Assembly (NCBI GenBank): GCA_963705505.1
Contig: CAVPJU010000010.1
Coordinates: 128,001-192,000 of the forward strand
Origin: an uncultured bacterium
Lineage (GTDB): Bacteria > Desulfobacterota_D > UBA1144 > Nemesobacterales > UBA2774
DNA: 64,000 bases
Direction of reading: 5' to 3'
In this document: piece after piece, positions 2,955 through 48,611 of the stretch
How positions within the stretch are numbered: position 1 is the stretch's first letter
How the letters are laid out: every line of letters begins with the position of its first letter
Made by a program: the position numbers and the translations under genes
Notes under the pieces: model-generated
What the model was told of the DNA's origin: nothing
What the model saw: only the letters and a program-made list of their open reading frames with translations
Databases searched by the model: none

Positions 2955-4952
2955 ATGGATAAAGAGCTTCGCATACTGATAGTGGAAGACATGCCCACGG
3001 ACATAGAGCTCCTCGAGCGGGAGCTCCGCAATGCAGGGATCACATTCCAGTCAAGGAGCGTGGATACAAGGGAATCGCTACTGAGGGAGCTTGAAGGTTT
3101 CAGTCCGGATATCGTTTTATCCGATTATACCCTTCCTTCATTCGACGGTATGAGCGCGCTGAAAATAGTTCGTGAGAAGAGTCCCAATATACCATTCATA
3201 TTCGTTTCAGGAACGCTCGGGGAGGAAAAGGCTATCGAGACGCTGAAAGCGGGCGCTACGGACTACGTGCTCAAGGAAAGGCTCTCGCGCCTCGTACCGG
3301 CGGTGCACCGGGCATTGCGCGAAGCCGAGGAGAGGCGGGAGCTCGAGAGGGTCGAAAACACGCTCAGGGAGAACCTGGTGCGTATCAGCGAGCAGGCTGC
3401 GCTCCTCGATATAGCCGCCGACGCGATAACGGTCAGGGACATGGATCAGAATATCGTGTTCTGGAGCAAAGGCGCCGAGAGGATCTACGGCTGGAAGGAA
3501 CACGAAGTCATAGGCGGGAAAGTAACCGAGCTGCTCTATAGCGAAGAAAGCCCCGAATCCGGGGAAGTCCACGAGGTTCTCATGGAACACGGGCAGTACA
3601 AAGGGGAAATGCAGCATGTGACCAAAGACGGGCGTGAAATCATCGTGGAGTCCCGTCTGACTCTCGTTACGGACGATGAGGGGAAACCCGAATCGATACT
3701 CTCCGTCAGCACCGATATAACGGACAGGAAGCTGTTCGAAGCGCAGCTCCTCCGGGCGCAGCGCATGGAAAGCATAGGGACACTCGCCGGAGGAATAGCG
3801 CACGACCTTAATAACGTTTTCCAGCCCATGCTTATGTCGCTCGAGATTCTCAGAATGAGGTCTCCCGATAAACAATCCATGAACCTCATACATACGATCG
3901 AGACGAGCATTCAGCGCGGCAGCAATCTTGTGAAACAGGTACTGTCGTTTGCAAAAGGGCAGGAATGCGAGCGGACCGACCTCCATATAAAACACATAAT
4001 CTCCGAAATTACGGATATGATAAAGGAGACATTTCCGAAAACGATAGAATTCCGCTCCGACCTCCCGGCTGACCTCCTGACCATATCGGGCGATTTCACT
4101 CAGCTCAATCAGGTGCTTATGAACCTGTGCGTTAACGCTCGCGACGCAATGCCGGACGGCGGAAGCCTGTCAATTACCGCTGAGAACTTCCATATCGACG
4201 AGAACTTCGTAAAGATGAATATCGATGCCAAAGTCGGACCGTACATTGCCATAACCATCTCCGATACCGGTTCGGGCATTCCGCCCAAGGTGCTGGACAA
4301 GATATTCGAGCCGTTCTTCACGACGAAAGAACCGGGTAAGGGTACAGGGCTCGGCCTCTCGACCTCATTCAGGATAGTCAAAAACCACGGGGGCTTCATC
4401 GACGTGTGGAGCGAGGCGGGAAAAGGGACGAAATTCACGATCTATCTGCCCGCTCTCGAATCTGCCGAAGCGGTATCCACAGGGGTAAATAGTTCAGCCG
4501 GGCTCCCCCTGGGACAGGGAGAAATGATACTCGTTGTCGACGACGAACCCTCGATCCGCGAGATTACACAATACACATTGGAGACTTACGGTTACAGGGT
4601 TATGACGGCGGATGACGGAGCTCAGGCAGTATCGAAGTATTCGCAGAAAAGGGAAGAAATAAAAGCCGTTATTATGGATATATCCATGCCTGTGATGGAC
4701 GGGCATACGAGCATCAAATCAATACGGGAGATCGATCCCCAGGTCAAAGTTATAGTCATGAGCGGATTAAAGAATAATAGCGGGAACAGGGAGATCGGTC
4801 CAGGAGAAACCGACGTGTTCTTGCCCAAGCCCTATACCGCGGAGGCGCTTCTCAGGACCCTGCGCGAAGTCATAAATTCCGACCCGGGGTTCAGGCGCGA
4901 CAACATATACGCTGACAATCCGGCTAAGACCGTTCATTACGAGCCGAATTAA
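2955..4952 (+). CDS. Hybrid sensor kinase (REC-PAS-HisKA-HATPase-REC)
   Basis: N-terminal receiver (ILIVED, DIVLSDYTLPSFDG), PAS/PAC, LAGGIAHDLNN, FEPFFTTK, GTGLGL, C-terminal receiver (ILVVDDE). Confidence 0.93.
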   Translation: MDKELRILIVEDMPTDIELLERELRNAGITFQSRSVDTRESLLRELEGFSPDIVLSDYTLPSFDGMSALKIVREKSPNIPFIFVSGTLGEEKAIETLKAGATDYVLKERLSRLVPAVHRALREAEERRELERVENTLRENLVRISEQAALLDIAADAITVRDMDQNIVFWSKGAERIYGWKEHEVIGGKVTELLYSEESPESGEVHEVLMEHGQYKGEMQHVTKDGREIIVESRLTLVTDDEGKPESILSVSTDITDRKLFEAQLLRAQRMESIGTLAGGIAHDLNNVFQPMLMSLEILRMRSPDKQSMNLIHTIETSIQRGSNLVKQVLSFAKGQECERTDLHIKHIISEITDMIKETFPKTIEFRSDLPADLLTISGDFTQLNQVLMNLCVNARDAMPDGGSLSITAENFHIDENFVKMNIDAKVGPYIAITISDTGSGIPPKVLDKIFEPFFTTKEPGKGTGLGLSTSFRIVKNHGGFIDVWSEAGKGTKFTIYLPALESAEAVSTGVNSSAGLPLGQGEMILVVDDEPSIREITQYTLETYGYRVMTADDGAQAVSKYSQKREEIKAVIMDISMPVMDGHTSIKSIREIDPQVKVIVMSGLKNNSGNREIGPGETDVFLPKPYTAEALLRTLREVINSDPGFRRDNIYADNPAKTVHYEPN

Positions 4953-8938: not shown

Positions 8939-9662
8939 ATGGCGAGACCCGACCTCAAACCCAAGGAACGCATAATCCTCGCTCTCGATTTTGCCGAGCT
9001 GAGGATAGCCAAGTTCTGGGTCGAGAGCCTAAAGAGCAAAATAAAGACGTTCAAGGTAGGCCCCATACTCTTCCTCGACGCGGGGCCCATAGGAATAAAG
9101 GAGTTCCGCGACATGGGGGCCGACGTATTCCTCGACCTCAAGTTCCACGACATACCCTCGACTGTTGAATTGTCCGCGAGGCAGGTCGTCCGCTTCGGGG
9201 TCAGGATGTTCACGATTCACTCCCTCGGCGGTCTAGAGATGATGAAGGCGGTTGCTGACGCAGTGACCGAGGAATCGGATAAGCTCAAGAGGCATAAACC
9301 TCTCGTCCTCGCCGTCACTGTTCTCACGAGTCACGACGAGGCAAGCCTCAAGCGTATCGGTATAAATTCATCGACGAAGGATACGGTGCTGAGCCTCGCA
9401 TCACTGGCGGATAAAGCGGGCGTTGACGGGCTAGTGTGCTCGGGGATGGAAGTAGAGATGCTGAGGAAGGAATTCGGGGACAGGTTCACGCTGGTCGTTC
9501 CCGGAATACGCCCCGGCAGGAGATAAGCACGATCAGAAGAGGGTAGTGACCCCAGCCGAAGCAGTCGCCAGCGGAGCCGACTACCTCGTCATCGGCCGCG
9601 CAATAACCGAGGCGGAGAATCCGGGTTTAGTTGTGGATGAGATTGTGAAATCTATTTCGTGA
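8939..9662 (+). CDS. pyrF: Orotidine-5'-phosphate decarboxylase; frameshift in a C run near 9512
   Basis: FLDLKFHDIPSTV, AVTVLTS, VVPGIRP; after removing one C it continues AGDKHDQKRVVTP...GADYLVIGRAI to TGA at 9660-9662. Confidence 0.93.
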
Positions 9663-9681
9663 ATGTTTAAATCCCCCTGTA

Positions 9682-9769
9682 ATTTGGTTTTAATAACCTA
9701 GCCACTTCAGTCAAGGGCTCCGTTGTTTTTATCCAAGTTCGACCAATTCCTCTTATTCATCGGAATTGT
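9682..9769 (+). mobile_element. 88-bp structured insert (copy A) interrupting a family A REP-like palindrome (9668-9790)
   Basis: Removing it gives TAAATCCCCCTGTA|TCCCCTTTACAAAAGGGG; shares motif spacing and the terminal hairpin with the insert at 20368-20454. Confidence 0.6.
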
Positions 9770-9803
9770 TCCCCTTTACAAAAGGGGAAAATAACTTGTA
9801 GTA

Positions 9804-9847
9804 TTCTTAATTCCCTCCTTAGAAAAAGGAGAGTCAGAGAGGGTTTA
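9804..9847. repeat. Family A REP-like palindrome (left direct copy flanking the TA module)
   Basis: TTCTTAATTCCCTCCTTAGAAAAAGGAGAGTCAGAGAGGGTTTA, close to the copy at 10541-10583. Confidence 0.8.
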
Positions 9848-9876
9848 CTTAATAATATAGGGCGATTAACTTTGGA

Positions 9877-10092
9877 CTAGTTATGAAAGGTGAAAACTGG
9901 CGTTTCTACAAGACGAGAGGGTTTTTTCTTGCTCCATACAGTTTCCTGAATCTTTTCAACTGTTTCGGGAGAGAAAAACTTCTCGCCCGTTTCCAGACAT
10001 ACCCTTGCAGGCACATTCTCGATAATGATAACCTTGTTATCTAATTCGAGTACATAGGTCACTATTTTCTCAACTATTGTTTCTTTATGCAT
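9877..10092 (-). CDS. YgiT-type zinc-finger protein (putative antitoxin)
   Basis: IIIENVPARVCLETGEKFFSPETVEKIQ signature; directly downstream of DUF4258. Confidence 0.8.
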   Translation of the reverse strand: MHKETIVEKIVTYVLELDNKVIIIENVPARVCLETGEKFFSPETVEKIQETVWSKKKPSRLVETPVFTFHN

Positions 10093-10540: not shown

Positions 10541-10583
10541 TTCTTAATTCCCTCCTTAGAAAAGGAGGGTTAGGGAGGATTTA
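10541..10583. repeat. Family A REP-like palindrome (intact reference copy)
   Basis: TTCTTAATTCCCTCCTTAGAAAAGGAGGGTTAGGGAGGATTTA; stem CCCTCCTT/AAGGAGGG. Confidence 0.8.
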
Positions 10584-20351: not shown

Positions 20352-20367
20352 AATTAAATCCTCCCTA

Positions 20368-20454
20368 AGCTGACATCAGCAAGTTTCCTGCGGTTTATGA
20401 GGCTTGGGTGCTCCTTAGGAAGTGTGACCGGTTCTTGCGCACGCTCAGAACCGT
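20368..20454 (+). mobile_element. 87-bp structured insert (copy B) interrupting a family A REP-like palindrome (20355-20480)
   Basis: Removing it restores TAAATCCTCCCTA|ACCCTCCTTTTCCTAAGGAGGGAATT, the reverse complement of 10546-10583 except for one extra loop base. Confidence 0.7.
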
Positions 20455-20529
20455 ACCCTCCTTTTCCTAAGGAGGGAATTGAAAGATTAAAGATGAAATT
20501 CCCGATAAAAACATACGGGAATCACAGGC

Positions 20530-21206: not shown

Positions 21207-21562
<356 letters not shown>

Positions 21563-48284: not shown

Positions 48285-48611
48285 GATTTGCTCCTCTTCT
48301 CTTAAATCCCGATTCTCGAATAACACATTAAGGTCACACTAAATAGATTCTAATGTCAACAAGAATTCTCTTTCAAATATTTGTCCTTTAGGCGAGTGCG
48401 TCCTAATGCTCTCATTCATCACATCGGTTCCTCTTTTTTTAATGGGAGAAATGAACACAATACCAAGCAAAATCGACAATACGACATTCCTGCGGGGCTA
48501 TATATACCTGCCGGAAATATCGGATGTCGTAACTTCTTCTCCCATACTCCAGAGGCGCATGAATCCTTTATCAGTTATATTAATCTACATAAAAGCAAGG
48601 GGCGTACAGTC

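Follow-up and report, generated by a model that had tools for sequence, protein, structure and literature searches.

Hairpin-inserted elements in the window

The window, by which we mean the whole 64,000-nt stretch of contig C10 analysed here, carries two intergenic inserts, copy A after pyrF and copy B after dtd, each of which splits a repetitive extragenic palindrome (REP). On balance, we lean towards reading them as members of a lineage-specific, non-autonomous mobile DNA element of 87–94 nt, which has no gene, targets hairpins and is mobilised in trans. The source genome of the window, G000, is a metagenome-assembled genome (MAG) of the Dadabacteria type (2.88 Mb in 10 contigs, 93.6 % complete). 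An earlier examination of the letters alone, here called the sequence-only reading, had already suggested a non-autonomous mobile element selected on structure and moved in trans, and this suggestion is supported by the further copies, the covariation, the empty targets and the lack of any known match described below.

Re-reading the sequence gave the two inserts the same extents as before, 88 nt (9682–9769) and 87 nt (20368–20454). The family consensus places the start of copy A at 9680, which gives it 90 nt (9680–9769, plus strand), the figure of 88 nt applying if the first TA is assigned to the REP; its ends are TAATTTGG at the 5′ side and GGAATTGT at the 3′ side. On its left lies the REP head AAATCCCCCTG (9669–9679, plus strand), 6 nt past the stop codon of pyrF (9660–9662), and on its right the REP hairpin, read from the sequence as TCCCCTTTACAAAAGGGGAAAAT (9770–9792, plus strand). 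Copy B (20368–20454, plus strand) is a divergent member without the T-rich 5′ motif and stands between the head AAATCCTCCCTA (20356–20367, plus strand), just after dtd, and the hairpin ACCCTCCTTTTCCTAAGGAGGGAATT (20455–20481, plus strand, likewise read from the sequence). The two copies agree at 28 of their last 54 nucleotides, and the spaced sequence pattern drawn from them fits A and B and nothing else, with two matches in the genome over both strands. Their terminal modules are built alike. In copy A (9738–9769, plus strand) the box TTCGACC, for which the family consensus is GGCGTCC, is followed by the stem CAATTCC, an 11-nt loop, GGAATTG and a T; in copy B (20423–20454, plus strand) the box TGTGACC is followed by CGGTTCT, an 11-nt loop, AGAACCG and a T. 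The stems differ at three positions, all compensated.

An empty target of the same kind is present in the window at 10546–10582 on the minus strand, where we read an uninterrupted REP, AAATCCTCCCTA directly followed by ACCCTCCTTTTCTAAGGAGGGAATT; its head is identical to the left flank of copy B. The uninterrupted form of the other REP subtype, AAATCCCCCTGAA followed by TCCCCCTTTACAAAGGGGGA, was found at four sites, and the head AAATCCCCCTG abuts its hairpin directly in four uninterrupted REPs. As uninterrupted REPs of both subtypes exist, the split point between head and hairpin is real, within 1–2 ambiguous bases, and the equivalent splitting of both REPs claimed by the sequence-only reading stands.

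Element anatomy and covariation

A short-word BLAST of copies A and B against the genome returned more copies of the 3′ part, and a hairpin-aware genome scan gave about 40 intact terminal modules; 42 modules were aligned. The terminal module consists of the box GGCGTCC, the last C of which opens a 7-bp stem, a loop of 10–11 nt that often reads TTGCTTGCTC, the closing strand and a T. Across the 42 modules from G000, 97.6 % of the stem cells are paired, whereas shuffling gives 77.8 %; both sides have changed in six of the seven stem pairs, and the observed covariation score was reached by none of 500 shuffles. When the partner strand was slid by 1–3 columns, pairing collapsed to 20–50 %. The compensatory changes first seen between two copies are therefore borne out by the larger alignment.

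Element length was read from the T-rich 5′ motif YRWTTTGG (seen as TATTTTGG, TAATTTGG or CAATTAG..) to the final GT. It was 87–94 nt in 22 of the 23 copies measured in G000, the remaining one having 77 nt. The elements carry no gene and consist of the T-rich 5′ end, a variable interior that forms hairpins, and the box with its 7-bp hairpin at the 3′ end; their two ends, YRWTTTGG (5′) and ..CGT (3′), do not form an inverted repeat. Forty-four distinct copies from several species could be aligned collinearly although they share only about 50 % identity, and the common blocks comprise the 5′ motif, a TGC lying some 15 nt ahead of the box, the box and the hairpin. The Alifold consensus of these copies contains, besides the terminal hairpin, a TGC/GCG helix that is weak and invariant; nothing else was supported. 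An upstream pairing of a conserved GGCT, proposed by the sequence-only reading, proved to be specific to copies A and B and was not predicted on the 44 aligned copies. Individual copies fold into two or three additional hairpins, the 5′ hairpins appearing in single folds only. By eye, about 8 of 13 copies of the copy A subfamily can be seen to form a hairpin whose loop is AGTTAAT and whose arms are CTGAAG/CTTCAG in some and CCGAAG/CTTCGG in others.

Uniform length, a covarying hairpin, conserved sequence blocks and the several hairpins of individual copies would also suit a structured non-coding RNA gene or a cis-regulatory RNA carried along by REPs, an explanation that we consider improbable. 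At the gathering threshold, Rfam recognised in the whole window only the tmRNA gene at 21207–21562 (plus strand, RF00023, 185 bits). With permissive settings the best match to copy A was mir-890 (E = 0.033, 21.9 bits against a threshold of 56), and copy B had no match, in line with the sequence-only reading, which did not recognise a known family. Forty-one of 48 copies are intergenic and the other seven lie in doubtful reading frames spanning repeats. The orientation of an element bears no relation to the genes beside it, as 15 copies have a co-oriented upstream gene and 25 an opposite one; on contig C5 (74 kb) all 29 matches to the element lie on one strand, with genes on both strands. Copies are nested in each other's hairpin, which an RNA would need intact. 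The terminal stem contains 4 U-G and 7 A-C or C-A cells, so A-C mismatches are as frequent as G-U pairs, and the G-U argument for the plus strand made by the sequence-only reading could not be maintained. The intergenic location, the gene-independent orientation and the excess of A-C over G-U stem cells together lend no support to an RNA function.

Copy number and distribution

We built a covariance model, R1, from the aligned terminal modules and applied it to G000 at E <= 0.01. It gave 70 matches, 29 on C5, 15 on C10, 11 on C9, 6 on C8, 3 on C4 and 2 on C2, plus four, all weak, in the 1.5 Mb that C1, C3 and C6 make up together. Copy A scored 47.4 bits at C10:137718–137774, which is window 9718–9774, and copy B scored 42.3 bits at C10:148403–148459. 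The presence of more copies in the genome, which had been named as a check on the original proposal, is clear from these 70 matches and from hundreds more in relatives.

At E <= 1e-5, R1 matched 22 of 41 relatives. In genus g1, that of G000, all nine other genomes had matches, 14 to at least 137 each, and in G003 we recovered 145. Matches were also present in four of four genomes of genus g4 and in the single genome of g5, with a few in g2, g6 and g9 and none in g3 and g7; the other families of the order had none among the 41 relatives. All compared genomes are MAGs, in which repeats are under-assembled. A phylum-wide search found matches in 30 of 120 genomes, including 26 of 32 in family f1, the only genome of f3 and, weakly, 2 of 15 in f7. 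No match was found in f2, f4, f5, f6, f8 (37 genomes) or f9 (19 genomes). When 185,579 species genomes were scanned for the pattern, at least 116 stretches were obtained, and 80 loci from among them were re-scored by R1. Among these 80, the loci kept were from MAGs labelled Dadabacteria, Thermodesulfobacteriota, 'delta proteobacterium' or 'Spirochaetia', and the re-scoring removed single matches in Streptomyces, Planctomycetota, Clostridia and others. BLAST against plasmid and phage collections gave no match to the element, and a search of the literature on Dadabacteria repeats and on nested miniature hairpin-loop or REP elements found nothing on the family. Apparently, this is a large, lineage-specific and undescribed element family of Dadabacteria.

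Insertion sites and targets

In every host type examined the element sits in a hairpin loop, and its orientation is fixed relative to each asymmetric host. For REPs of the type present in the window, the position is more exactly the 5′ foot of the hairpin, where the element separates it from the head AAATCCnCCC. The clearest comparison of empty and filled targets comes from an imperfect palindrome of about 110 nt, CACAGAATT...AATTCTGTG, found in G000 empty nine times (109–113 nt), with one element seven times (195–198 nt), with two once (283 nt) and with three nested elements four times (365–369 nt), the flanks being the same throughout. Near-identical palindromes differ in the loop only, the empty form reading ..AATTCAGCCC-GCA-CCCCTAAAAG and the filled form ..AATTCAGCCC-(CAATTAG...GGAACCGT)-CCCCTAAAAG, so that nothing is duplicated or lost beyond one ambiguous base. 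Similarly, the REP ATTCCCG-loop-CGGGAAT has loops of mostly 5–11 nt, and one loop of 94 nt and one of 185 nt both contain elements. Empty and filled versions of both the palindrome and REPs are thus available within the one genome. In other species REP types are split at the apex, e.g. GGATTCCTGC^TGCAGGAATGAC, GAGATCCTGAA^AGTTCAGGATGAC, AGATTTCTCG.. and GAGATTGCCGCG.., and across species the element occupies the apex of at least five other REP types.

The element also enters its own terminal hairpin. Such nested insertions were found at C5:24164, 28099, 30791, 46665, 50695, 52872 and 58574, at or just past the 5′ arm or 3–4 nt into the loop, and the nesting is two- or three-fold. Further copies stand directly behind 3 of the 44 tRNA genes of G000, Glu-TTC, Arg-CCT and Arg-TCT, all of which lack an encoded CCA. 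Arg-CCT is followed by two elements in tandem, and after each of them the final 15 nt of the tRNA are repeated; this arrangement recurs in another species. Behind Arg-TCT there is one element, then 16 nt of the tRNA end and then the terminator hairpin of the tRNA. REPs are targets, as the sequence-only reading had it, but too narrow a description, which has to be widened to the loop or apex of DNA hairpins of many kinds, among them the 110-nt palindrome, tRNA genes and the terminal hairpin of the element. The absence of target duplication that it saw at the two REPs holds at palindromes; at two tRNA genes 15–16 nt are duplicated. The stretch of 16 nt ahead of the element is biased towards C in 44 copies but contains no fixed word, and no common core dinucleotide was present at both junctions among these copies.

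The three tRNA loci are C8:189208–189460 (Arg-CCT), C10:547150–547304 on the minus strand (Arg-TCT) and C8:144394–144530 (Glu-TTC). At two of them the 15–16-nt copies of the tRNA 3′ end lie ahead of a CACAC-ATA-GTGTG terminator. A truncated integrase gene is located upstream of tRNA-Arg-TCT.

Independent mobility, composite spread and loss

The eight elements hosted by 110-nt palindromes are on average 94.2 % alike, and the host arms 82.6 %; in 27 of the 28 pairs the element is the more similar part. The element is therefore mobile on its own and is not merely co-duplicated with its host. On the other hand, each element subfamily is tied to one REP type across species, with the exception of one chimera, which indicates that REP-plus-element composites multiply as units too. 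One such composite, comprising copy A and both REPs at 9668–9850, is a repeat in relatives (query positions 728–912).

Elements are also lost by deletion, as shown by short remnants in loops. We found 8-nt loops ATCGTGGT that retain the last TCGT of the element, 38-nt loops that retain GGCGTC, and a host hairpin loop with only the first 13 nt of an element. A second REP family is spread over all of G000, (G)GATTCCCGA-loop-TCGGGAATGACA (e.g. C5:58338, C2:62658 and C10:18327), and has loop classes of 6, 8, 11 and 38 nt, of which the 8- and 38-nt classes resemble remnants of lost elements.

We propose that integration takes place at extruded hairpins and involves single-stranded DNA, either as the form of the element or as its target. 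The GGCGTCC box together with the hairpin would form a handle for a trans-acting nuclease or recombinase, specific for both sequence and structure and not encoded by the element, and the handle might be read by a logic akin to that of HUH or attC-type enzymes, which recognise a hairpin with an adjacent motif. Once an element has settled in a REP, the composite of both spreads as a unit as well.

The main rival needs no enzyme at all. In template switching, a nascent strand would stall at a hairpin, copy the element from an element-bearing hairpin and switch back. We rate this as rather unlikely, while noting that it would fit the failure to find a transposase, the exclusive use of hairpin loops as targets and the existence of partial remnants, and that the variable duplication (0 versus 15–16 nt) would follow from the points of exit and re-entry. 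It agrees poorly with the precise ends and the fixed orientation on asymmetric hosts, and with the elements in hairpins whose arms share no homology with the host of the donor. Moreover, the GGCGTCC box and the loop motif are nearly invariant while the rest is at about 50 % identity, which points to a protein that reads sequence.

Search for a mobilising enzyme

Several results weigh against the interpretation as a mobile element moved in trans. The first group concerns the enzyme. G000 has no match to Y1_Tnp, to the IS110 DEDD transposase, to RVT_1, to the TnpB zinc-ribbon or to DDE_Tnp_1 (IS4-type), and no transposase appeared among the 14 paralogue families scanned with Pfam (all-against-all BLAST, at least 60 % identity). 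Among relatives, Y1_Tnp was found in 3 of 9 genomes of g1, none of 4 of g4 and not in the one of g5, and the IS110 DEDD transposase in 9 of 41 (3 of 9 in g1, 1 of 4 in g4), so that neither tracks the element. Two integrases of G000 are sporadic among the 41 relatives and show no relation to it, and the integron integrase was detected in none of 24 f1 genomes at E <= 1e-30. The second group concerns the insertions themselves. The 15–16-nt duplication at two tRNA genes is a misfit with a duplication-free mechanism, and with one REP type per subfamily the independent insertions may number perhaps a dozen, not hundreds. With respect to recent mobility, a 98.5 %-identical strain (run X1) has the same filled site behind pyrF, and the contigs of four DNA runs contained no joint across copy A. 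Finally, statistical support exists for the terminal hairpin only, the interior structure having been judged by eye.

Other searches for an enzyme were similarly negative. Y2_Tnp had no match in G000, but this search was silent in all 14 control genomes too. The sole insertion sequence (IS) of G000 is one IS3 copy, which holds the only rve gene of the genome and whose 26-nt inverted repeats are unrelated to the element ends. Pfam scans of the genes around modules on C5, C9, C8 and C10 returned ordinary or unknown genes and no recombinase, and the scan at the strand-switch point of a long array of modules in G003 gave no recombinase either. Longer copies with the same ends around an enzyme gene, which the sequence-only reading had suggested looking for, were not found: searching up to 6 kb upstream of every G000 module for the other half of the host hairpin gave only the usual distances of about 100 nt as convincing results. 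Between near-identical strains no presence/absence differences were caught; a strain in run X2 has a different sequence after 9662.

The sequence-only reading had also drawn analogies to the IS110 family, to HUH enzymes (IS200/IS605) and to group II introns, and none of these survived as an assignment. For class C group II introns, which have a reverse transcriptase, a 5′ GUGYG end and a domain V, G000 has no RVT_1, no Rfam group II model matched over the copies at E <= 10, and the ends are TATTTTGG and ..CGT.

Borrowing of an IS110/IS1111-family recombinase, which works with a bridge RNA, by a selfish module would be modelled on ssr9 and ISPpu9. On its own, ssr9 is reported to form minicircles and to sit in REPs (PMC12288879). 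An IS110-family IS occupies the same REP in G001 and G004, and in G004 only 4 nt separate it from a 90-nt element downstream. Nevertheless, we find this origin improbable. G000 has no DEDD transposase, only the minority of g1 and g4 genomes counted above have one, and the IS ends, TGTATCTTAA...GACGGTATCT with a CT core at both joints, are unlike the element ends. The 44 copies share no junction dinucleotide and have no guide-like match to their own flanks. The two insertion sequences are located in G001:C119 (L230, ~1242–2475) and G004:C15 (L229), within the REP type of the window at AAATCCTCCCT^AACCC. Their left non-coding end has ATCCTCCCT, as expected of the target guide of a bridge RNA.

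Two further ideas were tried and rejected. A self-encoded guide in the manner of a miniature bridge RNA is not apparent, since matches to own flanks averaged 4.6–5.0 and those to the flanks of other copies 4.65–4.84. Hybrid-site recombination between the element hairpin and the target hairpin was discarded, since in nested copies the hairpin of the element is intact and that of the host is split.

Cassette-like arrays

The region C5 ~11.6–57.2 kb is a cassette-like array in which unrelated genes on both strands (permease, methyltransferase, AbiEii, RimK, type III polyketide synthase, CorA and others) are separated by the ~110-nt palindromes. The inner arms of these palindromes covary, all have one orientation and most carry an element in the loop. 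Palindromes of this kind are also present on C9, on C4, at C8:141991 and at C10:336607, and G003 has a stretch of about 160 kb with about 40 co-oriented modules.

One may ask whether the element is an integral part of integron-like recombination sites, e.g. the variable tip of attC-like palindromes. The gene array on C5 (11–57 kb), with its co-oriented palindromes, most of them with an element, and the long stretch in G003 would agree with this. We nevertheless think it very improbable, as nine palindromes have no element, the element is found also in unrelated REPs, behind tRNAs and in itself, and canonical R″/R′ cores were not recognisable by inspection. No integron integrase accompanies the array in G000 or in the 24 related genomes; the best match to TIGR02249 in G000 had 90.7 bits against a cut-off of 265.

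A bolder form of the mobile-element interpretation, which we hold with little confidence, is that the family represents a new class of hairpin-loop invader, moved by a vertically inherited host enzyme outside the known transposase families that would read the GGCGTCC box with its hairpin, and stands beside integron-like but integrase-free arrays of 50–160 kb of accessory genes bounded by the ~110-nt palindromes. If true, Dadabacteria would possess two linked, undescribed systems of single-strand DNA recombination.

Comparison with known systems

Several known systems share features with the element. IS200/IS605 and its miniature derivatives, the palindrome-associated transposable elements (PATEs), have, like the element, no terminal inverted repeats, no target duplication, a hairpin near the end and a single-strand logic; in contrast, G000 has no Y1 match, the element has no conserved 4–5-nt 5′ target and only its 3′ hairpin is clearly conserved. 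Integron attC sites and the attP of CTX phage are folded, single-stranded recombination sites. They resemble the element in conserving structure over sequence, in forming arrays of one orientation and in the lack of duplication, and differ in that we found neither IntI nor an R/L box layout and that the element enters loops and not the stem base. Miniature inverted-repeat elements of DDE transposons are different in having terminal inverted repeats and a duplication of fixed length, whereas the element has no such repeats and shows 0 nt at palindromes and 15–16 nt at tRNAs.

Insertion sequences that target REPs include IS1397, ISKpn1 and IS621. Others are ISPpu9/10, ISPa11, ISPsy8 and ISRm19/22 (PMC1525189). 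Such IS also use a fixed point and a fixed orientation inside REP hairpins, but they are autonomous units of 1–1.5 kb with transposase genes, as opposed to 90 nt without a gene. REPs themselves, in bacterial interspersed mosaic elements (BIMEs) or as REPINs, together with REP-associated tyrosine transposases (RAYTs; see PMC2817692, PMC3333891 and PMC3116915), are comparable in being abundant intergenic hairpins with covarying stems, a conserved short motif beside the hairpin and a presumed single-copy host enzyme. Here, however, there is no RAYT in G000 or in 10 of the 14 high-copy genomes (g1, g4 and g5), and the RAYT of G003 stands beside a GTAG-type REP. The element is also three times longer than a REP, carries a single hairpin, placed at one end, and has REPs among its targets. 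The gene in G003 is a RAYT-type Y1 transposase gene (G003:C8, L237, ~3350–3976) between inverted GTAG-REPs (GTAGGAGCGGCTTCCAGCCGC), a REP type unlike the hosts of the element.

A close parallel is ssr9 of Pseudomonas putida KT2440. It is described as gene-less, located in REPs, present in orphan copies and moved by the ISPpu9 transposase without duplication beyond a shared dinucleotide; it shares end boxes of 43 bp and 16 bp and an AG core with ISPpu9 (PMC12288879). Both are small gene-less modules resident in REPs without long target duplication, and mobilisation in trans would be common to them. In contrast to ssr9, no IS shares the ends of the element, most genomes have no IS110 gene, its copy number is 10–100 times higher and many hairpin types are targeted.

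In bacterial genomics, the means by which small palindromic repeats without genes spread have long been an open question. To our knowledge, the enzymes that spread them are known only for REP/RAYT and a few IS-derived modules. The family offers a clean natural record, with empty and filled targets in one genome, up to three nested generations, loss remnants and a sharply conserved handle, in host genomes almost free of ordinary insertion sequences, which should put the enzyme within reach of phylogenetic profiling or of a pull-down using a 32-nt oligonucleotide. As a tool, a protein able to place DNA into hairpin loops with no duplication would be attractive. The analysis also brought to light a cassette-like gene array without an integron integrase, which merits its own study.

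Further features of the window and its relatives

A decayed stretch in the window (48306–48433, plus strand) is probably a third copy. It has the head AAATCCC, the box GTGCGTCC, a degenerate hairpin and a degenerate REP, and R1 matched it weakly, with 22.1 bits at C10:176377–176433.

Copy A is accompanied by another REP of the same family, uninterrupted and inverted (9809–9846, minus strand); its sequence, AATTCCCTCCTTAGAAAAAGGAGAG-TCAGAGAGGGTTT, is the head-plus-hairpin layout in reverse complement. The space behind pyrF (9660–9880) is a repeat hot spot, as each of six relatives has a different set of REPs or elements there. In G003 a module has the opposite orientation, and in G009 and G005 a GTAG-type REP replaces the element.

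Paralogous genes for proteins of about 177 aa, with a SpaA_4-like fold and an IPTL-CTERM sorting signal, terminate at, or within, an element of the other strand (C9:25037–28668; G003:C2, L223, 3973–4503), and this arrangement of gene and element is kept between species.

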